This document shows positions 8,141 through 62,012 of a stretch of 64,000 bases of DNA, piece by piece (the stretch's first letter is position 1; the number at the start of each line of letters is the position of its first letter). The translations under genes were made by a program, and so were the position numbers. The notes beneath the pieces are model-generated. The model worked only from the letters and a program-made list of their open reading frames with translations, was not told the DNA's origin and ran no database searches. Source of the DNA: Candidatus Levyibacteriota bacterium (GTDB lineage: Bacteria; Patescibacteriota; Microgenomatia; Levybacterales; UBA12049); contig JACQHJ010000001.1 of the NCBI GenBank assembly GCA_016199085.1, positions 3,334 through 67,333 on the forward strand. Reading direction: 5' to 3'.

Positions 8141-8181
8141 GCCTGGATTTACCCCTCAATTTTTGTTAAAATATCTTACAT

Positions 8182-8253: not shown

Positions 8254-8311
8254 CTGCATATTTTAGCCTCAAGATTGACATTTATCATATTAGTCTTATA
8301 AGATAATATCA

Positions 8312-15883: not shown

Positions 15884-16076
15884 CAAAACGGTTGCAAAAT
15901 TAACCTGTCCCATATGCCAAAAGTTACAAACCGCAAAAATGCCTATTGATGCTTGTCAATATTTTTATAAATGCCAAAGTTGTGGTAAGATGCTAAAACC
16001 AAAAGAAGGAGACTGTTGTGTCTTCTGTTCATATGCAGATACAAAATGTCCGTCAAAGCAATCCACGTCAGCCTAA
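15876..16076 (+). CDS. small Cys-rich zinc-ribbon/metal-binding protein
   Basis: CPICQK...CQYFYKCQSCGK...GDCCVFCSYADTKCP, 66 aa. The start overlaps the upstream gene by 8 nt. Confidence 0.5.
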   Translation: MSSKTVAKLTCPICQKLQTAKMPIDACQYFYKCQSCGKMLKPKEGDCCVFCSYADTKCPSKQSTSA

Positions 16077-16083
16077 ATTCTAT

Positions 16084-23048: not shown

Positions 23049-23171
23049 ATGACTACATATATTTGTCCAATGCATAAAGAAGTGCAATTAGATAAACCCG
23101 GTAGATGCCCAAAGTGTGGCATGAAATTAGTTGAAAAAGGAAAGGAGAAAAACAATGAATGCTGCTGCTAA
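23049..23171 (+). CDS. 40-aa stand-alone YHS/TRASH-type metal-binding mini-ORF ending in CCC (possibly a frameshifted first metal-binding domain of the ATPase)
   Basis: MTTYICPMHKEVQLDKPGRCPKCGMKLVEKGKEKNNECCC. It nearly duplicates the ATPase N-terminus (IVYSCPMHSEVRSDKPGTCPKCGMRL). Its 3' end overlaps the ATPase start in a different frame. Confidence 0.5.
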   Translation: MTTYICPMHKEVQLDKPGRCPKCGMKLVEKGKEKNNECCC

Positions 23172-26714: not shown

Positions 26715-27128
26715 ATGAGACTAAATTCAGTCTATACATACATAAAAGTACTTTCTCTTATTGGCATAGGTCTTGCAATCTATCTTCTTTATGAACAATT
26801 CACAAATTCCCCATTTAGCCCCTGCAATATAAGCGAGACAATAAATTGCGACCCGATAGTAAAAGGAGAACTGGCAAAAACCTTTGGCATTTCCACACCC
26901 CTTTTGGGGTTATTGGGCTATGTCTTTATTTTTATTTTTTCCTTTTTGCAAAAGAAAAAAGCACTATTTTCCGTTGCAACATTTGGCTTTCTGTTTTGTC
27001 TTTGGATAGGTTACCGGGAATTATTTGAATTTAAGACAATTTGTCCAATCTGTATTGCCTGCACAACGGTAATCACGCTTATTTTCATTCTCTCATTTTT
27101 GATAGTCAAAAAGACAGTAAAAAACTAA
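26715..27128 (+). CDS. vitamin K epoxide reductase (VKOR) family protein
   Basis: Loop cysteines (SPCNISETINCDP) and the TM4 active site CPIC (TICPICIACTT), with four to five TM helices. Length is 137 aa. Confidence 0.8.
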   Translation: MRLNSVYTYIKVLSLIGIGLAIYLLYEQFTNSPFSPCNISETINCDPIVKGELAKTFGISTPLLGLLGYVFIFIFSFLQKKKALFSVATFGFLFCLWIGYRELFEFKTICPICIACTTVITLIFILSFLIVKKTVKN

Positions 27129-31266: not shown

Positions 31267-31358
31267 ATTCAAATTTACCACCGCTAATAATAGCACAGCA
31301 GATGGTATTTGTCAGCGATATTACAAATATTTTTTGCAAAATTTGCTATGCTTTATTT

Positions 31359-35720: not shown

Positions 35721-36206
35721 ATGAAAATCATAAATTTATTTTTAGATAAACTTCTTTTAGAAAACATTGTCCTTGCTCACTGTGACATTCCTTGTGGTAT
35801 TTATGATCCACATAACGCTCAAATTGGAGCCCACACCGTAATTAGAATGACCCAGATGCTACAAGATCTAAAACGAGAAGATGAAGTAAAAGCAGAGCAT
35901 GATATAGCAAGACTTACCCATGTAAAAGAAGAACACGGGCATTTGGTCGAAGACGAACTGGGAACTTTAGAAAATGATTATTTTAAACCCGAACATTTCC
36001 AAGCACACCCTAACCTTAAAGACCTACTGGAAAAGGCAGTTAAACTTTCAATTAAGGTAAGACAAAACATTGATATGGAATCTGCCAAAGAACTTTTAGA
36101 AACGGTTCTACTTATCTCAGAAATATTCTATAAGACAAAAAATGTTACCCCAGTTAGAGTAAAAAGTGTCTATCCAACTGAGGGTGAAATCGTTACCTAC
36201 AAATAA
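35721..36206 (+). CDS. sodN: nickel superoxide dismutase precursor
   Basis: After a 19-aa propeptide the sequence reads HCDIPCGIYDP, which is the Ni-hook motif (HCxxPCGxY). Length is 161 aa. Confidence 0.85.
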   Translation: MKIINLFLDKLLLENIVLAHCDIPCGIYDPHNAQIGAHTVIRMTQMLQDLKREDEVKAEHDIARLTHVKEEHGHLVEDELGTLENDYFKPEHFQAHPNLKDLLEKAVKLSIKVRQNIDMESAKELLETVLLISEIFYKTKNVTPVRVKSVYPTEGEIVTYK

Positions 36207-36496
36207 TGCTTCTTTTGGCAAAATACAAAATCACAGGACACAGTATGGAACCTCTTTTAAAAAACGGAGATAAAATTATCGCAACTGGCCTTTTTTATTT
36301 ATTTCAATCACCTAAGATTAATGATATAGTTGTTTTTAAAGATAGCAAAGGCAAAGTATTTATTAAAAGGATAGAGAAGATTAATAAAGGAAAATACTTT
36401 ATGTTAGGAGAAAACAAAAAAGACAGCTTTGACAGTAGAAAATTTGGGGAAATAGTAAGAAATCAAATACTTGGAAAATTTATTTATAAAATATAA
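36206..36496 (+). CDS. sodX: NiSOD maturation peptidase (signal-peptidase-I/S26-like)
   Basis: ITGHSMEPLLKNGD (the S26 catalytic-Ser box) and a C-terminal GENKKDSFDSRKFG. It is translationally coupled to sodN, with the stop and start adjacent. Confidence 0.75.
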   Translation: MLLLAKYKITGHSMEPLLKNGDKIIATGLFYLFQSPKINDIVVFKDSKGKVFIKRIEKINKGKYFMLGENKKDSFDSRKFGEIVRNQILGKFIYKI

Positions 36497-40467: not shown

Positions 40468-41578
40468 AAATAAAGCCATTATCGCAATCGGGGTTTTTGT
40501 GGCCATTTTGGTCCTTATCGTTATTGCAAAAACTGCAAGTTTTTATCCTTTTTTGTTTCAGCTAATTTTTGACAAGGAAGTAAAACTAAAACAAGCAGAG
40601 CCGAGCAAAATAAACGTCCTCATTTTAGGAATTGGAGGAGGATCGCATGATGGCCCAAATTTAACTGATACGATAATTTTGGCAAATATTGACGGGGCCA
40701 AAAATAAAGTAACACTTACTTCAATCCCAAGGGATTTATGGATACCTGTTTTAGAAGGTGGCAATAAAAAAATTAATGAAGCTTATGCAAAAGGAGAAGT
40801 AAAAAGAAAGGGAGGAGGAATAGCACTTTCCGAAGCTGTAGTTGAAAATGTCACGGGACAACCAGTTGACTATGCCGTTAGAATTGATTTTAACGGGTTT
40901 GTAAGAGCGGTTGACATTATCGGAGGATTGGATATTATTGTTGATAAAACTCTGGATGATTACAGATATCCGATTAGCGGTAAAGAAGACGACACGTGTG
41001 GTTTCTCAGAAGAAGATATTCAGGCTTTTGTAGCAACTGAAAGCGCGGAACAAAAACTGGCAGAAAAATTCTCCTGCCGCTATAAACATTTACATTTTGA
41101 CGCCGGCCCTCAACATTTAGATGGAGAAATGGCACTTGAATTTGTTAGATCAAGACATGGAGTAAACGGTGAGGGAAGCGACTTTGCCAGAAGCAAAAGA
41201 CAGCAAAAAGTAATAACCGCTTTCAAAGATAAAATATTTTCCGCACAAACTCTCATTAATCCTGCCAAAATCTTAAGTCTATATGACATCTTAAAAGATA
41301 GTATTGATACAAATATAAAACAGGAAGAATTTGATGATTTCATAAGACTTGCTCAAAAAATGAAAGATGCTCAAATAACCAGTCTCGTTATCGATACGGG
41401 AGATGAGGTTAACGATAGACCGGGTCTTTTGGACGAGGCCCCATATAAAGAGGAATATAATTTCTTATCAGTTTTGATACCCAGGGTTGGAAACGGAGAC
41501 TTTTCAGAAATTCATCAGTATATTGACTGCCGGCTAAGCGGAGGAGAATGTCCTCTGACAACAAACTCTAAAAATTAA
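40460..41578 (+). CDS. LytR-CpsA-Psr (LCP) family cell-envelope phosphotransferase
   Basis: TM anchor followed by INVLILGIGGGSHDGPNLTDTIILANID. The start overlaps the tpiA stop. Confidence 0.85.
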   Translation: MPKNKAIIAIGVFVAILVLIVIAKTASFYPFLFQLIFDKEVKLKQAEPSKINVLILGIGGGSHDGPNLTDTIILANIDGAKNKVTLTSIPRDLWIPVLEGGNKKINEAYAKGEVKRKGGGIALSEAVVENVTGQPVDYAVRIDFNGFVRAVDIIGGLDIIVDKTLDDYRYPISGKEDDTCGFSEEDIQAFVATESAEQKLAEKFSCRYKHLHFDAGPQHLDGEMALEFVRSRHGVNGEGSDFARSKRQQKVITAFKDKIFSAQTLINPAKILSLYDILKDSIDTNIKQEEFDDFIRLAQKMKDAQITSLVIDTGDEVNDRPGLLDEAPYKEEYNFLSVLIPRVGNGDFSEIHQYIDCRLSGGECPLTTNSKN

Positions 41579-43667
41579 TTTTATATAATTTAGCCTCACC
41601 TTTTTGATAAATAATTTCTCCTAAGCTTTTAATATTTTCCTCATTTAGCTCAGGATACTTTTCTTTTTCAAGTAAAGAGACAACAATATATGAAGCATTG
41701 TATTTTTTGATAATTTCCTTTGCCGTCTCAACATTTTTGGTTGTATAAAAAGTTTTAACATCATCCACTCTTGGTCCGACAACGTCGTAAGTTCCTCTCC
41801 AAAGCCATTCATGGACTGGCCAGCCCATGATTGTTGGAAGGCCAGTATTAGCAGAAATTCTGGCATAATCCGTATAAGAATCTCCTACTGCTTCAATTAC
41901 CACAGGCTGACCCTTAATATTAATATTTAACCAGTTTATTAAATCAAAATCCTCAGGATGAGTGGTACTTAGATATTTTGTTCCATCAAGCCCTTTATAG
42001 ATTTTCAAATTATCGTAATATGAATTGATCGCAAAAATCGGGTAGGAAAAAACCAAGTACAAAAGAATAAGTGTTGGGATAAAAAACAGTACCAATGTTT
42101 TTTTATTTCTTAAATGCATTAATATTTTTACGATTATGTACCCGCATGACAGCGAAAGCATAATAAAGGCTTCATAAGTTAACTTAAACATCGTGTTTGC
42201 TCTGTAATGGGCTGGATAAATATCTTTTACGTAGATTATTTCAGGAATAAGGATAAGAAGAGTGGAGAGTATTATTAGAAATGCTACAAAAATATCGCTT
42301 TTTGTAGTTTTATAATTTCTCTTAAATTTTAAAAACAGAATAAAAGAGATGACGAAAAAATAGAAGAATCCATAAAGAATAATAAGTTGCCAGATGGGAG
42401 ATGTCTGACAGTGATTTGATTCGAAAAGTAATGGGCCAAGTTTTCCCATTTTGGTTAGAATTTCCGGTGCACAGATAACTCCAATGCCCGAGACGAACGG
42501 CTTGAAGTTAACGCTGAAAGGAAGAGAGAAAGCAAAAAAACCTACTCCTAAAATAAAGACAGATGAAAAAAAGTTTGAAAAAGAAACCTTTTTATGAAAG
42601 CTGATAAGTAAAATTATCAAAAACGTAAGCAAACCGTAAATTATTCCATCCCATGCATTTGTCATGTACATTACAGCAAGTAAGAATGACAAAATCCCAA
42701 TATAAAGCTTCTTGACGTTTTCCTCTAAAAGCATTGCAAATATTAAGCCTATTGACAAAAGCACAATCGGAATATCTAAAACATGACCATGCAGGTCAGA
42801 GACTACGAAGGAATATAATGGAAATTCATGAATTGTAAATTGAATAAATCTTGTTGCGTTTGGATACCAATATCCGTTTGGAAAACTAAGCGGCAAAAAA
42901 GGAAGATTCCAGAAAACAATAGGATGGTCCTGCGGTATGTAAGCTTTAAAGAAAGCATAGATTGTTGTTAGGTTTCCTGAAAGAGCGACTAGGCTTGCTG
43001 AAAGAATTGAAGCAACAGCTGATTTTAAGGAAAATCTTTTATTGTCGAATAAATTTAGAACCAGAGAGAAAACCTGGGTAAAAGTTAAGGCAAATAAAAG
43101 ACCAAGCATTAGATTGTAACCAATGTTTGAAGCAATACCGGAAAGTTTTAAAAGTACGGCTGTTATTAAGTGTCCGAAATAATAATAATTTATCGAAAAG
43201 TTTGTATACCACATATCCTTTGGCGGAAAATAGTCGCTTCTTAGGATTGAATTTACAAAACCAAAGTCCATGAATTTCTCAAGGCCGTTGATGTTGGGCA
43301 TATTCCCTCTTATAAAAGACCAAAATATTAAAGCAAGCAAAAACAAAGCTTCCTCAATAATTATTAGCCTTAAGCTTTCCTTTAGTATTTTCCTAAAATC
43401 TATTTTTCTTAAAAGATACAAATTTAAAAAGAGGAATAAAAACAAAACGAAGATGATTTCAGAAAACGAGAATTTAAATATCTTAAGAAAAGAAAGAATG
43501 AAAACACTATACGAGATAAGAGCTATGCCGATTGTTTTTCCAAAAATATAACCTTTGTCTTTAAAGTTTTTAAAAAGAATTGAAGTTATTGGAAAAAACA
43601 ATGCGCCAATGATTAAGAAAACAAACCAAAATCTTAAAATAGAGAATAAATCAATTAAATCTAGCAT
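41568..43667 (-). CDS. DUF2298 / Chlor_Arch_YYY-type polytopic membrane protein (GT-C-like) with C-terminal soluble domain
   Basis: About 15 TM helices. The YYY motif reads SINYYYFGHL. A C-terminal domain of about 200 aa. Confidence 0.7.
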   Translation of the reverse strand: MLDLIDLFSILRFWFVFLIIGALFFPITSILFKNFKDKGYIFGKTIGIALISYSVFILSFLKIFKFSFSEIIFVLFLFLFLNLYLLRKIDFRKILKESLRLIIIEEALFLLALIFWSFIRGNMPNINGLEKFMDFGFVNSILRSDYFPPKDMWYTNFSINYYYFGHLITAVLLKLSGIASNIGYNLMLGLLFALTFTQVFSLVLNLFDNKRFSLKSAVASILSASLVALSGNLTTIYAFFKAYIPQDHPIVFWNLPFLPLSFPNGYWYPNATRFIQFTIHEFPLYSFVVSDLHGHVLDIPIVLLSIGLIFAMLLEENVKKLYIGILSFLLAVMYMTNAWDGIIYGLLTFLIILLISFHKKVSFSNFFSSVFILGVGFFAFSLPFSVNFKPFVSGIGVICAPEILTKMGKLGPLLFESNHCQTSPIWQLIILYGFFYFFVISFILFLKFKRNYKTTKSDIFVAFLIILSTLLILIPEIIYVKDIYPAHYRANTMFKLTYEAFIMLSLSCGYIIVKILMHLRNKKTLVLFFIPTLILLYLVFSYPIFAINSYYDNLKIYKGLDGTKYLSTTHPEDFDLINWLNINIKGQPVVIEAVGDSYTDYARISANTGLPTIMGWPVHEWLWRGTYDVVGPRVDDVKTFYTTKNVETAKEIIKKYNASYIVVSLLEKEKYPELNEENIKSLGEIIYQKGEAKLYKINF

Positions 43668-45292
43668 TTTGAATTAATATTGTAGATTATAAATCCATCT
43701 TTAGTATTTTCAAATACTTTTTTAAAGTTTTTATCAAAAAAACTTTTATTAACGACTGCATCTTCGTTATTTAAGTTAATATCGACATAATTTAGATGAA
43801 AATTTAAAGACTGTTTGCAGAAGTACTCCAAGTCACTGGTATTTAATAACTTTTTTCTGATATCATCCCTTTTTTGCGTGTTATACCCCTGGCTCCAGGC
43901 AAAATATGGCCAGCCTAAGAATATTTTCCTTCCAGCAAGGGATGCGTAGTTATAGAGATACTGGTTGTTTAAAAACACAGCGTTTTTACTCGTATTTTCC
44001 ATTATCCATGAAATATTTTTGTTCTTGGGATAATCAGAAAGAGTAATCTTTGAATCATTTAAGATTGGGAAAAAGTCTATTATTCCAGAGAGCGTTAAAA
44101 AGAAAAACAAGACTACGACTAAAGGTTTAAAGATATTTCTTTTTTTCCAAAGAATATATAAGGCAAAAGCCGAAAACATACCCCCGACAATTATGGAAAA
44201 ATTAAAAAACTTATGATTGGCTGCAATCTCCGGAGAAAACTGAATTAAATTTGCAACTATGAAAAGACTAACAAAAGAGATAAGAATCTTTTTGTTAAGT
44301 TTATTTGTAAGAAAAAATCCTAAAGGTATTAAAAAGATATTAAATCCAAGGTTGTAAAACCAATAATTTACAAAGCTAACCAGATTTAGATTTTCAACCA
44401 GGTAGCCTGGATTAATTGCAATTGCAGATTCTGATGGCACTTGGGAAAGGAATAAATACTGTGGAAGGGCAATGATACCCCCGATTAAAAGTACTAAGAA
44501 AATATATATGCGTTTTTCTTTTAAAAATATTAACATACAAGCTAAAACAAGAGCAGTCATTAAAAACACAGCAATATTTAAAAGGAAAGACAATCCAAAA
44601 ACGATTGCTATTAAAAAAGTTTTCTCAAAATTTTTGTGTTTTGTATGCTCATTAAACTTAAGTATTAAATAGATAATAAGAAGTGACAAGGCATAAGAGA
44701 GGGCAACGTGCCTTTGGTTTGTATAGATATTTAGGTTCCAAAAAGCTGACACAATGCTATTGTCATAAGGGCCAAACGAAGCAAATTTAGTGCTAGTTAA
44801 AACTGCATAAATTGAATCTAAAGACAATCCATTTTTGGCAAAATAATTAACAAAACTAAGTGTTGAGTTAAACAGGAAAAGAATAACGCTAAGTACTCCA
44901 ACAGCTTTTGATTTGAATATTTCTTTTGCAAAAAAATAGATCATTAATATTAGAAGGGTAAAACCAAAAATAGATGGAATATTTAGAGCAAGGTCAATTC
45001 TAAGTCCGATTTTTTCCAAAAAACCCACTAAAAGATAAAAAAGAAAATGATATTTTATTGCTGGACCGGAAAACAGGGGGTATTGCGGTGGAAGATTATC
45101 CCCAATTGAAAAGGATCTAATTAAAGGAATGTGACTTGAGAAGTCGCTCCAGGCTTTTGATCCAATCATCATTGAGCTACCACTATAAGAAAAGCTTGAA
45201 AACATAAGCCACGAGGAGAAAATTAAGGCACCTATTAAAATTACAATTTCTACAAAGTGCAATTTTAGGATATTTTGCAATCTAAGTTTCAT
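43661..45292 (-). CDS. polytopic membrane glycosyltransferase-like protein (GT-C)
   Basis: About 12 TM helices and a C-terminal soluble domain. Overlaps the neighbouring genes. Confidence 0.55.
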   Translation of the reverse strand: MKLRLQNILKLHFVEIVILIGALIFSSWLMFSSFSYSGSSMMIGSKAWSDFSSHIPLIRSFSIGDNLPPQYPLFSGPAIKYHFLFYLLVGFLEKIGLRIDLALNIPSIFGFTLLILMIYFFAKEIFKSKAVGVLSVILFLFNSTLSFVNYFAKNGLSLDSIYAVLTSTKFASFGPYDNSIVSAFWNLNIYTNQRHVALSYALSLLIIYLILKFNEHTKHKNFEKTFLIAIVFGLSFLLNIAVFLMTALVLACMLIFLKEKRIYIFLVLLIGGIIALPQYLFLSQVPSESAIAINPGYLVENLNLVSFVNYWFYNLGFNIFLIPLGFFLTNKLNKKILISFVSLFIVANLIQFSPEIAANHKFFNFSIIVGGMFSAFALYILWKKRNIFKPLVVVLFFFLTLSGIIDFFPILNDSKITLSDYPKNKNISWIMENTSKNAVFLNNQYLYNYASLAGRKIFLGWPYFAWSQGYNTQKRDDIRKKLLNTSDLEYFCKQSLNFHLNYVDINLNNEDAVVNKSFFDKNFKKVFENTKDGFIIYNINSKC

Positions 45293-46568
45293 TATCAACA
45301 AGTTTGGCAACTTTTTGGCCAAGTTCTACGGCATAATTTGTACCCCTGTCCCAGGGATATACCTGTTCAATATTTGCCAAAAAGACATTTTCAAAAGGAG
45401 TTTTAAAAGAGGGAAGGATTTTTGAGTAATTAACGGGAATTATAGGCTGAGCAAAAGGAGCTTTAAAAAGCTGGTAGTCTATTATATTTTTGGCATAGTC
45501 GGGATTAATTCTTTTTAGGTATGGGTCAAATATTTTTAACAGCTCCTCCTTTGTAATCTTAAAGTACAAATCATCACTGGCTTTATAGTTTCCTAAATAT
45601 AAAAGATGTTCGTTATCGTAATATTTTTTATCGATGAGATTAGTATGTTCAACAATTGCCATTACAGGTGCTTTTTTATCGCAGACATTTAGCCAATAAG
45701 TGCCTTCCCTAAAGAAAGGCTTCTTAAGTCTTAAGAATAAGTTTGTTGCGCCTAGTCCTTTTAGTTTCCCCAAACTCTCTTTGTATTTAGCAGGAAGAGT
45801 AGGAGCGATTTTAAGAAAAAGGAAAGATGGAGTAGTTACAATTATTTTGTCAAAGTTTTCATTTTCTATTTCTCCGTTTTGATATTGAATTTTTAAGTTT
45901 GTTTGGTTTTTCCCATCTAGCTCTAAAATTTCTGTTTGGAAAAAAACCTTACCCTTTTTTGCCTCAACTTCTCTAACAAGCGCCTTGGCAAATTCTAGAA
46001 ATCCTTTAGCCGGATAAGCAAGTGAAGGAGTTCTTTTTTGAATTCTTGCCCAAAACCAAGCAAGAGAAACGTTTCTGGAAAACTTACCGAATTTATTGAC
46101 AAAAAGTGGTTCCCAGATCATTTGATAGGATTTTTTTCCCATTAATTTTGGCAAGACAGTTGCGGCGTTGTATTTTTCCAGTACTTTCCAAAACGGTTCA
46201 TATCTTAAAAATCCTACAATAATACCCATTCTTAGTCTGTCCACTAAGGAAAGAAGGGGAAACTTCAAAACTGTAATCGGAGAATCAAACTGGTAAATAT
46301 TGTTTTCTACAAATACGGAAGTCTTAGGTCTTTTAATTATTACTCGGTAGTTAATTTCTTTGGCAAGACCTAGGATATATTTATCATTGGTAAACCAGTG
46401 GTGGTAGTGTTTTTCTAAAGACCAATCCCAATTTTTCTCTTTATATCCGATTGCAAGTCCTCCGGGACTCGGATCTCTTTCAAATATTTTAACATCGTGT
46501 CCTTTTTTAACTAATTCAAACCCTGCAGCAAGGCCTGCAAAGCCTGCGCCGATAATTGCTATTTTCAT
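45282..46568 (-). CDS. FAD-dependent oxidoreductase (amine-oxidase/protoporphyrinogen-oxidase-like Rossmann)
   Basis: N-terminal MKIAIIGAGFAGLAAGFEL...VKIFERDPSPGG dinucleotide-binding motif. Confidence 0.7.
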   Translation of the reverse strand: MKIAIIGAGFAGLAAGFELVKKGHDVKIFERDPSPGGLAIGYKEKNWDWSLEKHYHHWFTNDKYILGLAKEINYRVIIKRPKTSVFVENNIYQFDSPITVLKFPLLSLVDRLRMGIIVGFLRYEPFWKVLEKYNAATVLPKLMGKKSYQMIWEPLFVNKFGKFSRNVSLAWFWARIQKRTPSLAYPAKGFLEFAKALVREVEAKKGKVFFQTEILELDGKNQTNLKIQYQNGEIENENFDKIIVTTPSFLFLKIAPTLPAKYKESLGKLKGLGATNLFLRLKKPFFREGTYWLNVCDKKAPVMAIVEHTNLIDKKYYDNEHLLYLGNYKASDDLYFKITKEELLKIFDPYLKRINPDYAKNIIDYQLFKAPFAQPIIPVNYSKILPSFKTPFENVFLANIEQVYPWDRGTNYAVELGQKVAKLVDNET

Positions 46569-47956
46569 AGTGAAATGGTTCCCCTAGAGACAAGAAGCAG
46601 TAAACCACCTATCAAGGCTATTAATAGGCCAATGGCTCCAGCGGTAATTATAGTAGCATTACCCGTTGGTGGTAAAGGGGTAGTTGGAGTCGGGCTTGAG
46701 ATGGCAACAGATGGCGTTATCGTTAAAGTTGAAGTAAGAGTCGGACTTTGTATTAAAGAGGAGGTAGGACTTAAAGAGACGGTTTGAGACGTGGTTGGCG
46801 TAAGCGTTGGAGATTTTGTCGGAGTCGGCGAGCCAGATTCTGTGCTAATTTGAGATCCGGATGCGTTAACCATAAAGGCTTGGGTAATTGTCTTTACCGC
46901 TCCGGTTGAATCTTTGGCAACTATAGTTATTGTATGATCACCGGGAGGAAGTTCTTGGTCTGGTCTGTATTTCCAATTTCCGTTTGCATCAGCCTTAACG
47001 TCTGCTGTTATTTGAGTTTCGGAATTGATAATAATCTGCACGGTTTCATTAGCTGGTGCTGTCCCTTTAAACTCAGGTTGATTGTCTACAAAAGCCTGGT
47101 CCTTTTGAGGAGTTAAAATTTGAGGATTTCTTTTTGTTTCAGGAGCAACTAGGCTGCTACTAAAAGAAGGGAAGCTTTCGGTAGTTAAAGCCGTAGTAGC
47201 TGGCGTTGTATTGATTGTAAAATCATAATCATTTGAAAGTGTAATAAAAGGTACAGGATCGCTTTGTTCGGATAACAAAACTGCATTTGACCTAAGTCCG
47301 TCTCCAAAGGCCAAAAGTTTTAGGATTTGTCCTTTTTCGAGTTTAAAATATGTGGCAAGGTTAGAAGTTCTCAGGGAATTTAAAGGAAGAAGATATGTCC
47401 CATCATTTTTGGAAAGAGTAGAGATTACTTGTGAATTATCTGTCGTAAGATAAATAATTGCTTCGCCTGGGCTAACTCCGGTTGGAAGCATTAGTTTTCC
47501 ACTCATTGGATTTTGTTGCTCTGGTTGGTTTTCAATTGCGCTTCCAGTTGTTGCTTCAAAGGGATTTGCATTATTTAAATAGGTATCGTTACTACTAATT
47601 ATTGAAAAATAATATTTTGCGTCAGGTTTTAGGTTTCTAACTGTAATGTTATGAATATTGTAGCTATTGATGCTTCCTGAATTTTGGTCTCTATCATCAA
47701 GGGCAGATTGCCCAAGGGATTGGCTTTCCCCAAAGCTTAACGCTCCCGTTACTTTGTCTTCTGTATAATAAGAAACGGTAAAAGATTCTTGGGTAATATT
47801 ACTTATTCTTACTTCTTGAGGATCATGCGAGGGGCCAGCTCTAATTGAGAATATTCCACCCTCTCTTACTAAAAAAGTCGTAACGCCGATTCCAATAGCA
47901 ATAAGAAGTATACCTAGTAGATTAGGTATTTTTTTATTCCAAATACTTTCCCTCAT
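46565..47956 (-). CDS. sortase-anchored surface protein (LPPTG) with Ig/Fn3-like domains and S/T/P-rich stalk
   Basis: N-terminal signal anchor. The C-terminus reads ...SPTPTTPLPPTGNATIITAGAIGLLIALIGGLLLLVSRG, which is LPXTG plus a hydrophobic segment plus a basic residue. Confidence 0.75.
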   Translation of the reverse strand: MRESIWNKKIPNLLGILLIAIGIGVTTFLVREGGIFSIRAGPSHDPQEVRISNITQESFTVSYYTEDKVTGALSFGESQSLGQSALDDRDQNSGSINSYNIHNITVRNLKPDAKYYFSIISSNDTYLNNANPFEATTGSAIENQPEQQNPMSGKLMLPTGVSPGEAIIYLTTDNSQVISTLSKNDGTYLLPLNSLRTSNLATYFKLEKGQILKLLAFGDGLRSNAVLLSEQSDPVPFITLSNDYDFTINTTPATTALTTESFPSFSSSLVAPETKRNPQILTPQKDQAFVDNQPEFKGTAPANETVQIIINSETQITADVKADANGNWKYRPDQELPPGDHTITIVAKDSTGAVKTITQAFMVNASGSQISTESGSPTPTKSPTLTPTTSQTVSLSPTSSLIQSPTLTSTLTITPSVAISSPTPTTPLPPTGNATIITAGAIGLLIALIGGLLLLVSRGTISL

Positions 47957-48279
47957 GGACTTAATTCGCCTCCTACAGATTCCCGAGCACTATTTGTTCC
48001 TTCATTGGATTCTGTAACGGTTGGCGTGGGAAGCGGTGAAAGGCCTTGTTCCACTTGATCTTCTGAGACTTCAAAGGTATAGCTTGGTTCAATAATCTCT
48101 CTTTTTTTAAGTTCTTCAATAGTTTTCAAATCAAAATCAGGGTTTATAAAAAGAATTTGTTTGTTTACATCTTGGGGGATGGTGGAAGTCCTAAAACTAT
48201 GGTAAATGTTAAAAACAACCCATAGGATTACAACAATAACTAGGGGAACCAATAATATTAAAACGTCTTTTCTTTTCAT
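47953..48279 (-). CDS. small membrane-anchored protein (possible PilP-like)
   Basis: TM anchor and an acidic soluble tail. Overlaps its neighbours by 4 nt. Confidence 0.35.
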   Translation of the reverse strand: MKRKDVLILLVPLVIVVILWVVFNIYHSFRTSTIPQDVNKQILFINPDFDLKTIEELKKREIIEPSYTFEVSEDQVEQGLSPLPTPTVTESNEGTNSARESVGGELSP

Positions 48280-48285
48280 ATAAAA

Positions 48286-48897
48286 TTACTCTTTATAAAA
48301 TACTTTTCCTTGTAAATTAAATTGCAATGAATTATCAAAAGCAGACATGTTTATACTGATGTTTGAAACATCGGTAACTCTTTGCATATTTTCAACTTTT
48401 TCTAAAAATGCCAATGCATTTTCTATTGTTCCTTTAGCGGTAATATTGAAAGTATAGTAGTAAAAATCTCCCTTTTTTGAATAAACGATATTTGATGCTT
48501 GAATACTGACAAGTTTCATAGAACTATTTACTACAAGAGTTTGTAATTGTCCTGTAATTTTTGGTGCCTCCGTGTTTTTAGGAACTGTTTCATAAATAAT
48601 CGGAAGATCGTCTTGTATACTGTTATATTTTGTTTGTAAAACCGAAAGATTATTAATTTTCTGCTCAAGTCTGTCGCTAACGAATTTCGCGTCCTCAAGT
48701 TGTTTTTGCAAGTTTGCGATGGTAGAAAGGGTCGGATTAATGGCAAAAAGTGCAAGGATAATAATTGCAATAAGAGTTAAAACAACTGTTGTAAACTTCT
48801 GGGCTTTTTCTTTTTTAAAGTCTGGAATAAGCTCCAAATATTTACTGTATTTCTCTTTATTCGCCTTTTTAAATAATTTATTAATTATTGTCTTCAT
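48286..48897 (-). CDS. PilO-like type IV pilus assembly protein
   Basis: Short cytoplasmic N-terminus, one TM, a coiled coil (IANLQKQLEDAKFVSDRLEQKINNL), then a beta-rich domain. It is paired with the PilN-like gene. Confidence 0.5.
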   Translation of the reverse strand: MKTIINKLFKKANKEKYSKYLELIPDFKKEKAQKFTTVVLTLIAIIILALFAINPTLSTIANLQKQLEDAKFVSDRLEQKINNLSVLQTKYNSIQDDLPIIYETVPKNTEAPKITGQLQTLVVNSSMKLVSIQASNIVYSKKGDFYYYTFNITAKGTIENALAFLEKVENMQRVTDVSNISINMSAFDNSLQFNLQGKVFYKE

Positions 48898-49444
48898 ATT
48901 CGCTTGCTATTGGTTTTAGTTTAGCCGTGATGTTAATTACAATTATGGCACTACTTGTTTTTGTTTCAATTTTCCCTATACTGACGCTTTCGATGTTTTC
49001 ATATGTTTTTAGCTTATTCGTGAAGCTGCTGAGAGCTGCAACTGAGTCGGCATTTATTTCTATAGCTATAGAATCAGAAGAAAGAGAAACTTTAGTAAAA
49101 TTAATTCCTGGTTCCGCAAGGTTTAAAATATCTTTATAAATCTGTATTTTTTTTGCTCCTATCTGGGAGAAGTTTTGGGCAATAGACAGTCTGTCTTGTA
49201 AATTGCGATATTCGTCTTCCTGTTTTTTAAATGCTACTACAATAGCCTGTTTTTGTTTTATCTTAGTATGAAGATCAACGAGTTGCTGGTCGAGGCCGAA
49301 TCTCCAAAGAAACGCACCCAAAGCGATAAGCTCGGTGATAATGATTAAAACCCTTCCTACGCTTAAGGCCCAATTGATAATTCTTTCAAATAAATCACTC
49401 TTTTGGTCTTTGACTAAATTTATGGAAACAAAGCGTTTTGCCAT
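48881..49444 (-). CDS. PilN-like type IV pilus assembly protein
   Basis: N-terminal RFVSINLVKDQ (PilN starts ..INLLP..), one TM, a coiled coil, and a C-terminus IAIEINADSVAALSSFTNKLKTYENIESVSIGKIE typical of PilN. Confidence 0.55.
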   Translation of the reverse strand: MAKRFVSINLVKDQKSDLFERIINWALSVGRVLIIITELIALGAFLWRFGLDQQLVDLHTKIKQKQAIVVAFKKQEDEYRNLQDRLSIAQNFSQIGAKKIQIYKDILNLAEPGINFTKVSLSSDSIAIEINADSVAALSSFTNKLKTYENIESVSIGKIETKTSSAIIVINITAKLKPIASEYEDNN

Positions 49445-49491
49445 GCTAAATTTAGTCTAGGGGTTTTTGAGCTTTTTGTCAAAAGAAAAAG

Positions 49492-51506: not shown

Positions 51507-53231
51507 ATGCAATATCAACAGATTCGTAACTTCGCCATCATTGCCCATGTTGACCATGGCAAATCAACTCTTGCAGATAGATTTCTGGAAATTACCAATA
51601 CCATTGGCAAAGACAAGCTCAAAGAGCAGTTTTTGGATCAAAGTCCAATTTCAAGAGAACGCGGTATTACGATAAAACTGGCACCTGTAAGGATGAAGTA
51701 TAAACTTTGGGAAAAAGAATATACCCTTGATTTAATCGATACTCCGGGTCACATGGATTTTTCCTATGAAGTATCAAGAACTTTAGCAGCGTGCGAAGGA
51801 GCTATACTTTTGGTTGATGCAACAAAAGGGATTCAGGCTCAAACAGTTGCCCATTTTAATGCGGCTAAAAAAGAAAATCTAAAACTAATTGCCGTGGTAA
51901 ACAAAATTGATCTTGATAGTGCCAATACAAAAGAAGTTACAAAAGATATAGTTGAATTGTTTGGATTTAAAGAGGAAGAAGTTCATTTTGTAAGCGCAAA
52001 AACAGGAGAAAACGTAGATAAACTTTTGCAAGCAGTTGTAGAAAAAATTCCACCTCCAAAAGTTTCTGAAAACGATCCTTTCAGGGCCTTGGTTTTTGAC
52101 GCTATCTTCGATGAACATAGGGGCGTAATTATTTTTATTAAAGTTGTTGGCGGAAGGGTTAAAAAACACGACCAGATTGAATTTATTCAAAGTAAAACCA
52201 AAGTTTTGGTTTCAGAAGTTGGCTTTTTCTCTCCCAGTCTTATAGGAAAAGAAGAACTGAGTGAGGGCGAAATTGGCTATGTCGTAACAGGTATTAAAGA
52301 CATTAGGCTTACAAGAGTAGGAGATACACTTAGATTCTTAGGATCAAACGTCTCTCCTTTAACAGGTTACGATATGCCAAAACCAATGGTTTTTTTCGGG
52401 GTTTATCCCAAATCCTCTAATGAATACGTCCACCTAAGAGAGGCTTTAAATAAACTTGCCTTAAACGATGGTTCTCTTACTGTTACAAACGAATATTCGG
52501 CATTTTTGGGAAGCGGTTTTAGGGTAGGATTCTTAGGACTCTTGCACGCTGAAATTGTTAAGGAAAGATTAAACCAGGAGCAAAACATAAACCCTCTTTT
52601 AACAATGCCAAGAGTTTTATACAAAGAAGAAAACGGTGAAATGCTCGAGCCCTATATGAACCTTTCTATTTTTGTTCCGGCAGATTATGTAGGAGCTGTT
52701 TTAACCGTTGCCCAAAACAAACGAGGAACACTACTTGATATGTCATATCACAAGCAAAATGCCATTTTAAAATATGAAATGCCATATTCAATGTTTATAA
52801 GAGGACTTTCTTCAGATCTTAAAAGCGTTTCTTCGGGTTTTGCAAGCTTGGATTACGAAATTTTGGGATATAAAAAAGCTGACCTTGTAAAAATGGATAT
52901 TTTGATAAACGACAATATAATCGATGTTTTATCAGAGCTTGTTTATAGTGACGAAGCTGTTTTTGTAGCCAGGGAAAGAATAGCAAAATTAAAAGAAAAT
53001 CTGCCAAAACAGCAGTATAAACAGGTAATCCAAGCAGCTATCGGTGCAAAAATTTTGGCAAGAACAGAAATTTCCCCTTTTCGAAAAGACGTTTTAGCAA
53101 AGATGTCAGGAGGAGATAGAACAAGAAAAGATAAGCTTTTGGAAGCACAGAAAAAAGGAAAATCAAAACTTATTAATATTTCTAAGGTGGAAATTCCTCA
53201 AAAAGCGCTTTTATCAATGATTGAAAGCTAG
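51507..53231 (+). CDS. lepA: elongation factor 4 (LepA)
   Basis: IRNFAIIAHVDHGKSTL, DTPGHMDF and NKID G-motifs, plus the LepA-specific C-terminal domain. Confidence 0.93.
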   Translation: MQYQQIRNFAIIAHVDHGKSTLADRFLEITNTIGKDKLKEQFLDQSPISRERGITIKLAPVRMKYKLWEKEYTLDLIDTPGHMDFSYEVSRTLAACEGAILLVDATKGIQAQTVAHFNAAKKENLKLIAVVNKIDLDSANTKEVTKDIVELFGFKEEEVHFVSAKTGENVDKLLQAVVEKIPPPKVSENDPFRALVFDAIFDEHRGVIIFIKVVGGRVKKHDQIEFIQSKTKVLVSEVGFFSPSLIGKEELSEGEIGYVVTGIKDIRLTRVGDTLRFLGSNVSPLTGYDMPKPMVFFGVYPKSSNEYVHLREALNKLALNDGSLTVTNEYSAFLGSGFRVGFLGLLHAEIVKERLNQEQNINPLLTMPRVLYKEENGEMLEPYMNLSIFVPADYVGAVLTVAQNKRGTLLDMSYHKQNAILKYEMPYSMFIRGLSSDLKSVSSGFASLDYEILGYKKADLVKMDILINDNIIDVLSELVYSDEAVFVARERIAKLKENLPKQQYKQVIQAAIGAKILARTEISPFRKDVLAKMSGGDRTRKDKLLEAQKKGKSKLINISKVEIPQKALLSMIES

Positions 53232-54664
53232 AGCGCCAGAAGAAGTATAGCTCCGATAAAGGCCATTAGCACTCCGATTGCACCAATTGTGATAAGTTCG
53301 GTTGGTCCTGTTGGTGGTAGAGGTGAAGGACTTGCAATAGACTCGGTTGGGGAAGCTTCGCTTCCTCCCTCGACGGTAACTTTGGCAGTACATGTTCCAG
53401 TCGCGCTTACCTTACCATTTTCATCGGTAATAGTTGCAACGGCATTAAATGTTCCTGAAGTTGCGTAAGTATGGGAAACCAAAACGCTTACAGAATTTGT
53501 TCCTACCCCTCCCGCATCCGTTACTTCCTGAGTTTGTCCGTCTCCAAACGTAAAACTGACTTTACTAATTGCAGCATCCGTACTTGATCCATTTGCAGTT
53601 AAATTAACTGAAAAAGGCGCTGTTCCGCTTGTCGCAGGATCAAGGTTAAGACTTGAGCAAGTTAGGGTTTCTGCCTGTCCTGCAGTTGTCGGAGTCGGAG
53701 TAAGGGTAAGTGTAGGAGAAGTTGTAACAGTAACAGTTGTTGATGCGGCTGTTATATTTATAGGCGTGGAACATCCTGGGGTTTGTAAACCCTGGTTGTC
53801 TGTTATTGTGGCAGATGCCGTGTAGCTTCCCGCTTTATCATATGTATGACCTGCTGAGGCTGTAGCAAGCGGAGTTCCATAACCTTCGGTCCCTTCCGCG
53901 CCATCAGATGGACTAATGTCTGTTCCGTCTCCGAAATCAATTTTTATACCCGCTACGCTTCCGTCATTGTCACTTCCAGTTGCGGTAAGTTTAACTGTGT
54001 ACGGCGCTTGTCCGCTTGTTGGCTTATCCAAAGAAAGATCCACGCAAACTGGTGCCTGTGAAGTCGTAGATTTTATATTAACAGAGCCTCCGGAAAGACC
54101 GGAAATAAGATTTGATCCGACTTCATCGGTATTAGTGGTTCCGCCTTGGGATATAAGTTGGCTTTGATTTCCGAATGTGACCTGAGTCGGAACATTTTCT
54201 TCTGTTGGAGCAATTGCCTTAAAAGTAACACTGGCTATTTTTGTTCTCGTTGTTAATACATTTTGTTGAGTTCCGCCGACAGACATAGCAACCGTTATCG
54301 TGCCGGGGCCGTAGTCAGGCCCTATGGGGATACTTGGAGTGAAAGTAGAGCCGTCAGCCGACGGCCATTGGGAAACAACAAAACTTCCCTCCATGGTTGC
54401 AAGCTTTGTTGAATCATACGACAGGACAAGCTTAACGTAGGAAATCTGGTTAATATTTGAGGGATCAATATAAATATCAAAGCTGACGTTTTCCCCTACA
54501 TTTTTTGTTTGGGGAGTGGGTAACATTGAAAGCGTGGTCGCAGCTTCTGCCGCGGATCTTGTTCTTTGCTGCTGACCCACTAAATACACGGTAACGGGAA
54601 TTGCGATTAGAAGCACAATGATAAAGCCAAAGAACAAAAGTTTTTTGCCCGATAACAACGACAT
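53228..54664 (-). CDS. sortase-anchored surface protein (LPPTG) with PKD/Ig-like repeats
   Basis: Signal anchor, TVTVTTSPTLTLTPTPT repeats, and a C-terminus ...ASPSPLPPTGPTELITIGAIGVLMAFIGAILLLAL. Confidence 0.75.
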   Translation of the reverse strand: MSLLSGKKLLFFGFIIVLLIAIPVTVYLVGQQQRTRSAAEAATTLSMLPTPQTKNVGENVSFDIYIDPSNINQISYVKLVLSYDSTKLATMEGSFVVSQWPSADGSTFTPSIPIGPDYGPGTITVAMSVGGTQQNVLTTRTKIASVTFKAIAPTEENVPTQVTFGNQSQLISQGGTTNTDEVGSNLISGLSGGSVNIKSTTSQAPVCVDLSLDKPTSGQAPYTVKLTATGSDNDGSVAGIKIDFGDGTDISPSDGAEGTEGYGTPLATASAGHTYDKAGSYTASATITDNQGLQTPGCSTPINITAASTTVTVTTSPTLTLTPTPTTAGQAETLTCSSLNLDPATSGTAPFSVNLTANGSSTDAAISKVSFTFGDGQTQEVTDAGGVGTNSVSVLVSHTYATSGTFNAVATITDENGKVSATGTCTAKVTVEGGSEASPTESIASPSPLPPTGPTELITIGAIGVLMAFIGAILLLAL

Positions 54665-58170: not shown

Positions 58171-59127
58171 TCAGAAAGCAGAGTTAGGGCTTACGAAATA
58201 AATTAAAACTACAACCATAATTACCCAAATAATTACAGAGGTTAAAAGCGGTTTATCAGAAAGCAAAACTCTTTCCGGACTTTCCCCTTCATGTTTTTCA
58301 TAAATGTCTTGAAGATAACGCATTAGCCCGTAAACAACAGGTAAGATTGTTATCATAAGCCACTTTCTTTCAAAAAAAGCTGATAGAGTATCTGGAACCA
58401 AGACGCTGACATTTAATCTAAATCCCCCCGGATTTTCCAGGAAAGTAAAAAGGGAATATGCAATAAATGTAGAAGTTGCAAAAATAGATGCGTAGACGTC
58501 TAAAAGTCTGTCTGAATAATGTGAGAGCGATTCTCTGGTTGCTGCAATATCTGCTTCTTTGTTTGCCGATAGAAGAGTTAACTCCGATCTTCTTTTTCCA
58601 ATTGCGATAAAAAGCGAAATGGAAATTGTAGTAAGTAAAAGCCAGACTGAAATATGAAGTCCGGTTGCAAATTCTCCTCCGTAGACTCTTAAAATATAAC
58701 CGCTGGCAATTGCCAAAATGTCTACAACAGCCAGAGATTTTAGAAACATCGAGTAAAAAAACTGAATAAAAAGATAAACTATTCCGATTGCAAAAAAAGT
58801 TGGGGTAATACCTTTAGCAAGATAAAGTGATGCGACAATAAGTAGTACTGCAAAGCTTATCCCAAACGAAACAGGTATATCTCCATGAGCTATGGGCCTG
58901 AATTTTTTAAAAGGATGGAGTCTGTCTTTTTTAATATCAAAGATATCGTTGATGATATAAGTTGCGGAAGATAGTCCGCAAAAAACAATAAATGCTCCGA
59001 TTGCATTGGTAAGAAATTGAGCATCAAAAAGTCCTCCGGCAAAAGTAATAGGGGCAAAAACGGCAAAGTTTTTGATCCATTGCCTTGGTCTGACTAATCT
59101 TAGTATGTTAAAAGCGAGTTTTATCAT
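58171..59127 (-). CDS. UbiA-family decaprenyl-phosphate phosphoribosyltransferase-like (DPPR synthase-like)
   Basis: LVRPRQWIKNFAVFAP...NDIFDIKKDRLHPFKKFRPIAHGDI is the signature of the DPPR-synthase subfamily of UbiA prenyltransferases. About 8 TM helices. Confidence 0.75.
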   Translation of the reverse strand: MIKLAFNILRLVRPRQWIKNFAVFAPITFAGGLFDAQFLTNAIGAFIVFCGLSSATYIINDIFDIKKDRLHPFKKFRPIAHGDIPVSFGISFAVLLIVASLYLAKGITPTFFAIGIVYLFIQFFYSMFLKSLAVVDILAIASGYILRVYGGEFATGLHISVWLLLTTISISLFIAIGKRRSELTLLSANKEADIAATRESLSHYSDRLLDVYASIFATSTFIAYSLFTFLENPGGFRLNVSVLVPDTLSAFFERKWLMITILPVVYGLMRYLQDIYEKHEGESPERVLLSDKPLLTSVIIWVIMVVVLIYFVSPNSAF

Positions 59128-60187
59128 TAATCCTTCTTATTAATAACTGCAAAAATAAAATTCCTCCGAAAGCCAGTATTACAAGCATTATTATAGCAAA
59201 AAGCTTTCCTTGACTTGATAAAACAAGTGCAAGGCTTCCTAAAATTGCTGAAACTATCCAATAAAATGCCGCAACAGATCTTTGACTAAAACCAAGGCCT
59301 AGCAAAAGGTGATGCAAGTGTTTTTTGTCATGCCAAAAAGGAGATTTGCCGGACAGAATTCTTCTAAGTATTGTAAAAAGACCGTCAGTCATAGGTATTC
59401 CCATAACAAGTATTGCTGTTGCAAGTTTTGCACTTGAAAGAATAGAGGCAATAGCAAGGAGAAGATAAATAGCTGTTGCACCGTATCCGGGAAATATTTT
59501 CGCAGGATAAAAATTAAAAACCAAAAAGCCCAAAGATGCCCCGGCGATTATGAAAGAAAGAGTCGCAGCGGTAATACTAGACTGGTCTGCGATAGAAAAA
59601 CGAAGACTTAAAATTCCAATTACAATTGCAGAGATTGCAACAATACCTGGCATTTGCCCGTCGACACCTTTGCTCCAATTTAACATGTTCATAACCCAGA
59701 CTATCCAGATAACGGCTATTAAATCCGATAATACTGAAATAACGGGGATATTCACAAAGGGAATCTGAATTGCATTTAGATACAATATTCCCCCAAACGG
59801 ATTTGTTATAAAAGGGATGTTGGCTCCCATTAAAACTACGAATACTGCACAGCCTATGTTTATCAAAAATCTAACATAAGGGGAGATATCGAATTTATCA
59901 TCAATAATTCCCGCAACAAGCGAAACAAAAGCAGCCAAAAACGCTGCAACGATAATTTTATCAAAGGGAATAAAAATTAGACTTGCCACAAACACTCCAA
60001 TAAAAAGAGGAATACCGCCTCCTCTTGGAACAGGGTTTTTATGAATTATCGCAGGGTGTTTATGTTTTTTAGGATCATCGACAACCTTATATTTCTTTAA
60101 AAAATACAAAGAGACTGGAATTGTAACAACCGTTATAAGAAGTGAAATTAAAAATGGAAAAATGACAACCCAGTTTAAGTCTAGCAT
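59108..60187 (-). CDS. GT4-family polyprenyl-phosphate N-acetylhexosamine-1-phosphate transferase (MraY/WecA-like)
   Basis: DDKFD (the DDxxD motif) and a VMNMLNWSKGVDG loop in a 10-TM protein. Overlaps the UbiA gene by 20 nt. Confidence 0.8.
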   Translation of the reverse strand: MLDLNWVVIFPFLISLLITVVTIPVSLYFLKKYKVVDDPKKHKHPAIIHKNPVPRGGGIPLFIGVFVASLIFIPFDKIIVAAFLAAFVSLVAGIIDDKFDISPYVRFLINIGCAVFVVLMGANIPFITNPFGGILYLNAIQIPFVNIPVISVLSDLIAVIWIVWVMNMLNWSKGVDGQMPGIVAISAIVIGILSLRFSIADQSSITAATLSFIIAGASLGFLVFNFYPAKIFPGYGATAIYLLLAIASILSSAKLATAILVMGIPMTDGLFTILRRILSGKSPFWHDKKHLHHLLLGLGFSQRSVAAFYWIVSAILGSLALVLSSQGKLFAIIMLVILAFGGILFLQLLIRRINDKTRF

Positions 60188-60543
60188 TATAAAATAAGCA
60201 GTAATGTTTTTAAAATAAATACAAAAATCATCACAGAAATTAGAAGGTTAACCGAGCCTACAATTCTTGCAAGTAAAGGATTATTCTTTTGATACAAAAC
60301 GGAACTAAATCCTAAATTAAAAACAAAAATAAAAATATATAAAGCTACGGGAATAAAAATTCCGTAACCTTGCGTCAATCTTTCATTTCCCCAGGGCAAT
60401 TGATTGAAAATTGGAATGTATGGGGGAATATTTTTTAAGTTTAATAAAATAAATATAATCGTTAAGACAAGGATAAGAAAGCTAAGTCCAAATACCCCTA
60501 AAGTAATTCTGTCTTTTTTAATGTCGCTAAAGAATTTTCTCAT
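60187..60543 (-). CDS. small 3-4 TM membrane protein
   Basis: 118 aa, hydrophobic. Overlaps its neighbours by 1 and 17 nt, which suggests an operon with the glycosyltransferases. Confidence 0.45.
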   Translation of the reverse strand: MRKFFSDIKKDRITLGVFGLSFLILVLTIIFILLNLKNIPPYIPIFNQLPWGNERLTQGYGIFIPVALYIFIFVFNLGFSSVLYQKNNPLLARIVGSVNLLISVMIFVFILKTLLLIL

Positions 60544-62008: not shown

Positions 62009-62012
62009 AAAA

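Follow-up and report, generated by a model that had tools for sequence, protein, structure and literature searches.

Why does a PilN/PilO pair in Candidatus Levybacteria (Candidate Phyla Radiation (CPR)/Patescibacteria, Microgenomatia) share an operon with a surface protein that ends in an LPPTG sorting signal? The pair is encoded on the minus strand of a 64-kb stretch of DNA, called the window here, and all positions refer to this window. Four genes stand in the order pilN-like, pilO, a gene for a membrane protein of 108 amino acids (aa) and a gene for a 463-aa surface protein. They are packed into one operon, start behind a conserved promoter footprint and occur together in every related locus with enough DNA to show them. 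The explanation that is tentatively preferred is that PilN and PilO are filament-platform proteins of Levybacteria, and that two envelope partners, the small protein and the wall-anchored one, tie the platform to the wall or surface. PilN and PilO are already known in CPR bacteria; their coupling with a wall-anchored protein in an operon without pilM appears to be the new part.

Operon organization and promoter

The open reading frames (ORFs) of the four-gene module and the two short elements associated with it are as follows.

48881-49444, minus strand: pilN-like gene, 187 aa (ORF and family evidence)
48286-48897, minus strand: pilO, 203 aa (ORF and Pfam PilO)
47953-48279, minus strand: small bitopic membrane protein gene, 108 aa (ORF and alignment of 22 orthologs)
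46565-47956, minus strand: surface protein gene, 463 aa (ORF, Pfam and AlphaFold2 (AF2) model)
46661-46675, minus strand: LPPTG sorting motif of the 463-aa protein (read from the sequence)
49454-49482, minus strand: promoter-like element TTGACA-N17-TAGACT (window sequence and conservation upstream of orthologous pilN)

The pilN-like gene overlaps pilO by 17 nucleotides (nt), pilO is separated from the 108-aa gene by a 6-nt gap, and the 108-aa gene overlaps the 463-aa gene by 4 nt. The gene order and the 17-nt and 4-nt overlaps given in the original prediction match the ORFs exactly. Its proposal of a single operon holds as well. A further 4-nt overlap, absent from that prediction, joins the 463-aa gene to the flavin adenine dinucleotide (FAD)-dependent oxidoreductase gene that follows the module.

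45282-46568, minus strand: FAD-dependent oxidoreductase of the PRK07233 family (NCBIfam NF005560, 385 bits, and Pfam Amino_oxidase)
41568-45322, minus strand: two large polytopic membrane proteins, one of 553 aa and one DUF2298/Chlor_Arch_YYY protein (Pfam and NCBIfam scans)

The 553-aa protein has no family match in Pfam or NCBIfam. In one related locus (L113, 6099-9310) the genes at the position of the two polytopic proteins match PMT_2. No convincing minus-strand terminator was found ahead of these two genes, and they are probably co-transcribed with the module. Identical copies of the PilO, PilN-like and 463-aa proteins are recorded on a 143-kb Levybacteria contig. The identical PilO carries the NCBI name 'type 4a pilus biogenesis protein PilO', and the existing annotation of the PilN-like protein and of the two downstream proteins is hypothetical or generic.

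The 47-nt gap between rpsT and pilN contains TTGACA-N17-TAGACT, whose end lies about 9 nt ahead of the pilN start codon. Of 85 distinct regions upstream of orthologous pilN genes, 77 retain both hexamers while the spacer sequence varies, and these include lineages with a different upstream gene. This footprint in the sequence indicates a real promoter. Since it ends about 9 nt before the start codon, the mRNA would be nearly leaderless. Its position directly before pilN also marks pilN as the first gene of the unit, and pilM is therefore not co-transcribed.

The upstream region takes other forms in some loci. The divergent loci L029-L031 and L033 have their -10 box about 34 nt ahead of the ATG, and a short inverted repeat separates the two. 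In one lineage, represented by L003, a gene for a 304-aa protein (L003 8472-9386, plus strand) is inserted between rpsT and pilN. The protein has no Pfam match, is rich in Pro, Ala and Thr in its N-terminal half and does not resemble PilM.

Identity of PilO and PilN

The identity of PilO is solid. Pfam PF04350 matches at 41.5 bits (gathering threshold (GA) 22; E 1.9e-10) across model positions 3-140 (138/145). In a profile search of the PDB, using a profile of 14 homologs, the Myxococcus xanthus PilO is found at 1.9e-10 and the Pseudomonas aeruginosa PilO (2rjz) at 1.8e-4. The protein is bitopic, with a conserved cytoplasmic N-terminal motif, a transmembrane helix, a coiled coil and a ferredoxin-like domain, and its gene directly follows the pilN-like gene in 86/86 loci. 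GspM models of Pfam and NCBIfam are matched weakly, with scores far under the family cut-offs. The cytoplasmic motif covers residues 16-37 (Y..YLELIPDFKKEKAQKFTT) and is strongly conserved; Tyr16, Pro24, Lys27, Glu29 and Lys33 are invariant. To our knowledge this motif has no known partner.

The PilN assignment is supported; hidden Markov model evidence is borderline for the window copy, and the evidence at the level of the family is good. Pfam PilN (PF05137) matches the window copy at 21.0 bits (E 3.6e-4), just under the GA of 22.8, and matches the ortholog in L003 at 23.4 bits. At E<=0.01 the model is matched by 14/22 orthologs, the best at 8.4e-9. The best PDB profile match is the M. xanthus PilN, which is colinear but weak (E 0.098). 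An hhalign comparison of the PilN profile with the PilO profile was not significant.

The AF2 model of the PilN-like protein was built on 30 homologs and has a predicted local distance difference test (pLDDT) score of 85.6. It consists of a disordered N-terminus, a helix of about 100 residues (10-107) and a beta-beta-alpha-beta-beta domain. In terms of architecture, a short cytoplasmic N-terminus with the motif S-I-N-L-V is followed by a transmembrane helix, a long coiled coil and the C-terminal domain. A Foldseek search with this last domain gives the GspL-family periplasmic domains of PulL, XcpY and EpsL as best matches (TM-scores 0.73-0.78), and the Thermus thermophilus PilN (4bhq) is also matched with a probability of 1.0. 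The model therefore has the PilN/GspL-type topology of a transmembrane helix, a coiled coil and a C-terminal ferredoxin-like periplasmic domain. The original prediction had named the two proteins PilN-like and PilO-like and proposed profile searches and structure prediction as checks. Both names stand: the PilO match is well over its threshold and is repeated in the PDB, and PilN, with a borderline score for the window copy, is supported by the ortholog matches and by the predicted fold with its likeness to GspL/PilN periplasmic domains.

The S-I-N-L-[LIV] motif in the cytoplasmic N-terminus of the PilN-like protein is found in 88/93 distinct orthologs, even though they can be as little as about 32% identical overall. 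The motif is similar to INLLP in canonical PilN, the N-terminus of which is established to bind PilM (cited in PMC6916266 and PMC13319060). The conservation of the motif argues that a cytoplasmic partner is retained, and the PilN-like protein may bind a PilM-type protein. The best reading of these results is that PilN and PilO are true members of a type IV filament alignment/assembly subcomplex.

The two downstream proteins and the sortase

The 108-aa protein has no family match in Pfam, NCBIfam or the PDB. An alignment of 22 orthologs gives an N-terminal transmembrane helix with an invariant Trp20 and a conserved extracellular segment of about 35 aa (TSTI..QI.PI.P.FD.KTI..LK.R). The tail is disordered and rich in Pro, Thr and Ser.

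The 463-aa protein matches Pfam Big_13 at 46.8 bits and contains an FN3-like Pur_ac_phosph_N domain. It was modelled by AF2 with 30 homologs, and the pLDDT is about 90 in three domains. A signal or transmembrane helix (4-31) is followed by an FN3-like domain (47-136), a second beta-sandwich (151-247) and the Big_13 immunoglobulin (Ig)-like domain (279-363). The C-terminal part consists of a disordered Pro/Thr stalk (368-427), LPPTG (428-432) and a transmembrane helix (434-457). The sequence ends in ...TPLPPTGNATIITAGAIGLLIALIGGLLLLVSRGTISL, with the LPPTG, the hydrophobic stretch and Arg458 as basic tail, so that all parts of a sortase-substrate signal are present, namely an N-terminal signal, an LPXTG motif, a hydrophobic segment and a positive tail. 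Ala40 is invariant, and its x-x-A↓x-P context fits cleavage by signal peptidase I. The description of this protein in the original prediction as Ig/FN3-like, with a stalk and a sorting signal, is thus borne out by the three beta-sandwich domains, the Pro/Thr stalk and the C-terminal LPPTG, transmembrane helix and Arg. About 470 full-length homologs were found, and their source taxon names, where given, are all Levybacteria or 'Patescibacteria group'.

Retention of the N-terminal helix as a membrane anchor, suggested by the unusually conserved N-terminus, was considered and set aside because a neighbouring LPPTG protein has the same conservation and an AxA-type site. This second LPPTG protein (53228-54664, minus strand, 478 aa) has a cohesin-like domain and two PKD domains, and almost every related locus keeps its gene between groES and lepA. 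As the PamR anchor of the CPR Pam pilus it was rejected, since it scores 22 bits against a cut-off of 300 bits. The proteins of the module itself match no Pam model in NCBIfam, so membership in a Pam pilus was rejected for them too.

A candidate enzyme for the LPPTG signal is encoded elsewhere in the window.

7529-8140, plus strand: sortase, nearest class F (Pfam Sortase and NCBIfam)

The Pfam Sortase score is 69.9 bits, and NCBIfam class_F_sortase reaches 144 bits, which is under its 166-bit cut-off. This class F-like enzyme is the only sortase found in the window and lies 39 kb from the module. That the sorting signal and a sortase both lie within the window supports the preferred explanation, and the 463-aa protein would be processed by such a sortase. 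No class C sortase was found in the window. The 463-aa protein lacks the YPKN pilin motif, a class III signal peptide and other pilin features. The sortase gene is followed by a gene for a 565-aa mycosin-like subtilisin protease, the two together spanning 7529-10009 (plus strand); in this protease a Pro/Thr linker is present and the C-terminal domain is FN3-like.

Conservation across related loci

Related loci were collected from a scan of one genome per species (28 loci) and from a metagenome scan seeded with 6 distant PilO representatives (80 more). The small and large protein genes are present in 78/78 loci having at least 1.9 kb downstream of pilO, and pilN is present in 86/86 loci having at least 0.7 kb upstream. 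Recurrence of the synteny in related genomes, on which the original prediction had made its case depend, is therefore clear. Among 82 distinct loci, junctions of at most 10 nt are found in 78 between pilN and pilO, in 81 between pilO and the small gene, and in 81 between the small and large genes. These last two genes share exactly 4 nt (ATGA) in 71/82. Nearly all loci, also those with a rearrangement, have the FAD oxidoreductase gene next after the module. The module and the oxidoreductase gene stay joined where the upstream gene rpsT is replaced by an elongation factor G (EF-G)-like gene (L029-31, L067, L101, L105).

Covariation of evolutionary rates was measured with a mirror-tree test on 29 loci, using partial correlations and rpsT as control. 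The value for PilN and PilO is 0.70, those for the 463-aa protein are 0.55-0.61, and the rpsT control reaches 0.61, so that the test does not set the 463-aa protein apart from the control. The mean distance is 0.89 for the 463-aa protein and 0.90 and 0.99 for PilN and PilO. The 463-aa protein evolves no faster than PilN/PilO, unlike typical fast-evolving adhesins.

Absence of other pilus genes

A PilB/PilT-type Walker A motif and a class III (prepilin) signal peptide were not found in any frame of the 64-kb window, nor in 3,787 ORFs of 112 related loci of about 20 kb each. Nor did the proteins of the window or of the related loci include a PilM-like or PilC-like protein or a secretin. The gene upstream of pilN in the related loci is rpsT or an EF-G-like gene, with the conserved promoter, and is never PilM-like. 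The earlier observation that pilM, pilins and a secretin are missing nearby thus extends to the whole window and to all 112 loci.

As a rule pilM, pilN and pilO are contiguous in type IVa systems, those of other CPR bacteria among them (PMC12206443, PMC6744442). According to published surveys, genes for pilus machinery are widespread in the classes of the CPR and mostly lie together (PMC6744442, PMC12206443), which makes the Levybacteria arrangement unusual. Literature searches gave no description of Levybacteria pili, nor of a pilN-pilO operon that lacks pilM and is coupled to a sortase-type protein.

Comparison with known systems

In the type IVa PilM-PilN-PilO(-PilP-PilQ) systems of Pseudomonas, Myxococcus and Thermus, PilN and PilO are homologous to the proteins described here in sequence and fold, and their genes are likewise adjacent and in the order N then O. 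The I-N-L-type motif of PilN is shared, and the two envelope protein genes of the module sit at the positions of pilP and pilQ. However, a conserved promoter stands in place of the upstream pilM, the downstream proteins are not homologs of PilP or PilQ, and Levybacteria have no outer membrane. No PilP-like or secretin-like sequence or fold was found in the module proteins by Pfam and NCBIfam searches and by Foldseek of the 463-aa model.

The type IVa pili of monoderms, such as Streptococcus sanguinis, Clostridium and the Saccharibacteria TM7x, share the single membrane, PilN/PilO and the lack of a secretin. They raise the same question, namely how the machinery attaches to peptidoglycan or crosses it (PMC6916266). 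In those loci pilM, pilN and pilO stand together with pilB, pilC, pilD and pilins (PMC12206443, PMC6916266), which is not the case here. The Firmicutes PilO is enlarged (56.6 kDa), and there is speculation that it anchors the machinery to peptidoglycan or helps it cross (PMC6916266), whereas the Levybacteria PilO is of canonical size and is followed by separate proteins.

The Chloroflexota bacterium Litorilinea aerophila has pilN and a pilO-LysM fusion without pilM, pilP or pilQ beside an archaellum cluster, and a wall-bridging scaffold was proposed for it (PMC13319060). The likeness is that pilN and pilO, without pilM, pilP and pilQ, are combined with a device for attachment to peptidoglycan. 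In L. aerophila the device is a non-covalent LysM fused to PilO and filament genes are adjacent, whereas Levybacteria would use a separate, covalently sortase-anchored protein and have no filament genes nearby. In type II secretion the counterparts are GspL/GspM(/GspC), and the GspL periplasmic domains are the best structural matches of the PilN-like model; however, the module lacks the GspL cytoplasmic domain, GspE, GspF, GspD and pseudopilins.

The 463-aa protein shares with Gram-positive LPXTG substrates (MSCRAMM-like) the signal at the N-terminus, Ig/FN3-like domains in tandem, a stalk that is rich in Pro and Thr and spans the wall, the LPPTG followed by a hydrophobic segment and basic tail, and a sortase in the genome. 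It differs in that its gene is locked in a pilN-pilO operon, its motif is mostly [ILV]xxPG across the family, and it evolves no faster than the machinery. The CPR Pam pilus, with PamA/B pilins, PamC/D chaperones and the PamR anchor, is another CPR-specific surface structure of Ig/FN3-like domains with a membrane-anchored terminator (bioRxiv 10.64898/2026.03.03.709456). Unlike its components, the 463-aa protein matches no Pam model, and chaperone-like genes are not present.

Interpretation and alternatives

In the preferred explanation the pilN/pilO genes of Levybacteria have become uncoupled from pilM and are the first genes of an envelope operon under their own conserved promoter. They are translationally coupled to the gene of a small bitopic protein and to that of a Sec-exported, sortase-type wall-anchored protein. 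The S-I-N-L motif of PilN would still bind a cytoplasmic PilM-like partner encoded elsewhere, and PilN/PilO would form a ring in the membrane. The small and wall-anchored proteins would be lineage-specific partners that link this platform to the peptidoglycan or surface, with no outer membrane present. The linkage would fill an anchoring role like that of PilP/PilQ/TsaP by different means. The gene identities, the operon, the promoter footprint and the unfailing co-occurrence of the genes are shown by the data, whereas PilM binding, processing by a sortase and any physical contact of PilN/PilO with the two downstream proteins are inferred. A bolder version is doubtful as it stands: a pilM-uncoupled PilN/PilO would be joined via a tiny bitopic adaptor to a sortase-attached peptidoglycan protein, and so staple a filament platform or an exapted scaffold to the wall.

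Several results weigh against a link of this kind. The 463-aa protein looks like an ordinary surface adhesin without a PilP/PilQ-like fold; Foldseek of its model against the PDB returned solely generic FN3/Ig strings and adhesins such as SiiE. LPXTG proteins normally hold their folded domains away from the membrane. The canonical LPPTG is present in 12/73 distinct orthologs and most of the others have [ILV][PSA][SP]PG; the Gly of the motif is invariant and a basic tail is found in 55/73. Since the motif is degenerate in most orthologs, sortase anchoring is well founded for the window copy and uncertain for the family. CPR sortases may take a broader motif, or many orthologs may merely be anchored in the membrane at the C-terminus. 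Neither the window nor the 112 related loci contain pilM, pilB, pilC, pilD or a pilin. The tight junctions run on into the FAD oxidoreductase gene and genes for GT-C/PMT_2-like membrane proteins, which are unlikely to be pilus parts. The neighbourhood of about 20 kb, housekeeping genes included, is collinear in most loci: a PEGA protein gene, groEL/ES, the PKD protein gene, lepA, murJ, rpsT and the module are followed by the FAD oxidoreductase gene, GT-C, lytR, tpiA and uvrD. Synteny alone is therefore weak evidence of function and the co-occurrence is partly inheritance. The covariation of PilN with the 463-aa protein (0.61) equals that of PilN with rpsT (0.61).

If there were no physical link, PilN and PilO would be ordinary pilus assembly proteins with the other pilus genes elsewhere, and the downstream genes would be independent members of a compact inherited operon in a very small genome; the LPPTG protein would at most be a surface adhesin co-regulated with the pilus genes. 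The collinear neighbourhood, the junctions that continue into obviously non-pilus genes, the generic adhesin-like fold and the equal covariation values all fit this account, which is unlikely but has to be taken seriously. It does not explain why the usual pilM-pilN-pilO contiguity (PMC12206443, PMC6744442) is replaced by an equally invariant pilN-pilO-small-large order under its own conserved promoter, why this block survives rearrangement of its upstream border, or why the 463-aa protein, at a distance of 0.89 against 0.90 and 0.99, does not diverge like a fast-evolving adhesin. A functional link is favoured for these reasons and because the genes are translationally coupled. It is quite improbable that PilN and PilO have been exapted outside a classical pilus, as a scaffold for another envelope structure or for display or glycosylation of the wall-anchored protein. 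Pilus core genes are absent within about 10 kb in the 112 loci and from the 64-kb window, the neighbours belong to envelope biogenesis (murJ, an LCP-family gene, femAB, PMT-like GT-C, UbiA and GT4), and there are precedents in the PilM/N/O homologs of flagellar motors and the PilN/PilO of a bacterial archaellum (PMC10823254, PMC13319060). However, the conserved PilM-type binding motif of PilN suggests that the canonical cytoplasmic partner is kept, pilus machinery genes are reported throughout the CPR classes (PMC6744442, PMC12206443), and no genes for an alternative filament were seen nearby. The original prediction had suggested a hybrid surface appendage or delivery of an adhesin through the pilus platform. 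The LPPTG protein would then be cargo or a tip adhesin that passes through the platform or is polymerised on it, in a hybrid type IV/sortase appendage. Co-transcription with pilN-pilO agrees with this, and type IV pilus proteins that aid secretion through the wall in Clostridium perfringens are a distant precedent (PMC11580942). Yet the protein carries a Sec-type N-terminal signal of its own, with the invariant Ala40 that fits signal peptidase I, and also a sortase-type signal at its C-terminus; there is thus no indication that delivery needs the pilus platform. With no class III signal, no pilin-type features such as YPKN, no class C sortase and no match to a Pam model, a hybrid appendage is not indicated either, and both forms of the proposal are very improbable.

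Other features of the window

Near the operon, positions 58171-63506 (minus strand) encode a PMT/PMT_2 protein, a UbiA prenyltransferase and GT4 and GT2 glycosyltransferases. The 3' part of the operon and these PMT/UbiA/GT neighbours look like a lipid-linked glycosylation neighbourhood, which might O-glycosylate the Pro/Thr/Ser stalks of surface proteins. At 35721-36496 (plus strand) a gene for a nickel superoxide dismutase (Sod_Ni, 118 bits) stands immediately before one for a short S26-type peptidase, so that the familiar SodN/SodX maturation pair is present in a CPR genome. The window also encodes an archaeal-type phosphoenolpyruvate carboxylase (PEPcase_2, 459 bits) and a copper-handling cluster, in which genes for a multicopper oxidase and a P-type ATPase are accompanied by thioredoxin/DsbA-like genes and one for a VKOR homolog. 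The carboxylase and the copper/thioredoxin/VKOR genes jointly occupy 29755-31296 (minus strand) and 16018-17505, 23131-25404 and 26715-27128 (plus strand).

Significance

Pili are thought to be central to the attachment of CPR bacteria to their hosts. The operon, invariant across the phylum, pairs PilN/PilO with a protein predicted to be covalently anchored in the wall and provides concrete candidate components. If the link is not real, the locus is an ordinary pilN-pilO pair within a compact envelope operon. If it is real, it would be a third independent solution beside the PilO-LysM of Chloroflexota and the enlarged PilO of Firmicutes. How a type IV pilus is anchored in peptidoglycan, and passes through it, without an outer membrane is an acknowledged open question (PMC6916266). 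The bolder version, if true, would amount to a previously undescribed stapling to the wall of a type IV filament platform, or of an exapted PilN/PilO scaffold, in a single-membrane bacterium, and would answer in one lineage how such machines anchor in the wall and cross it.

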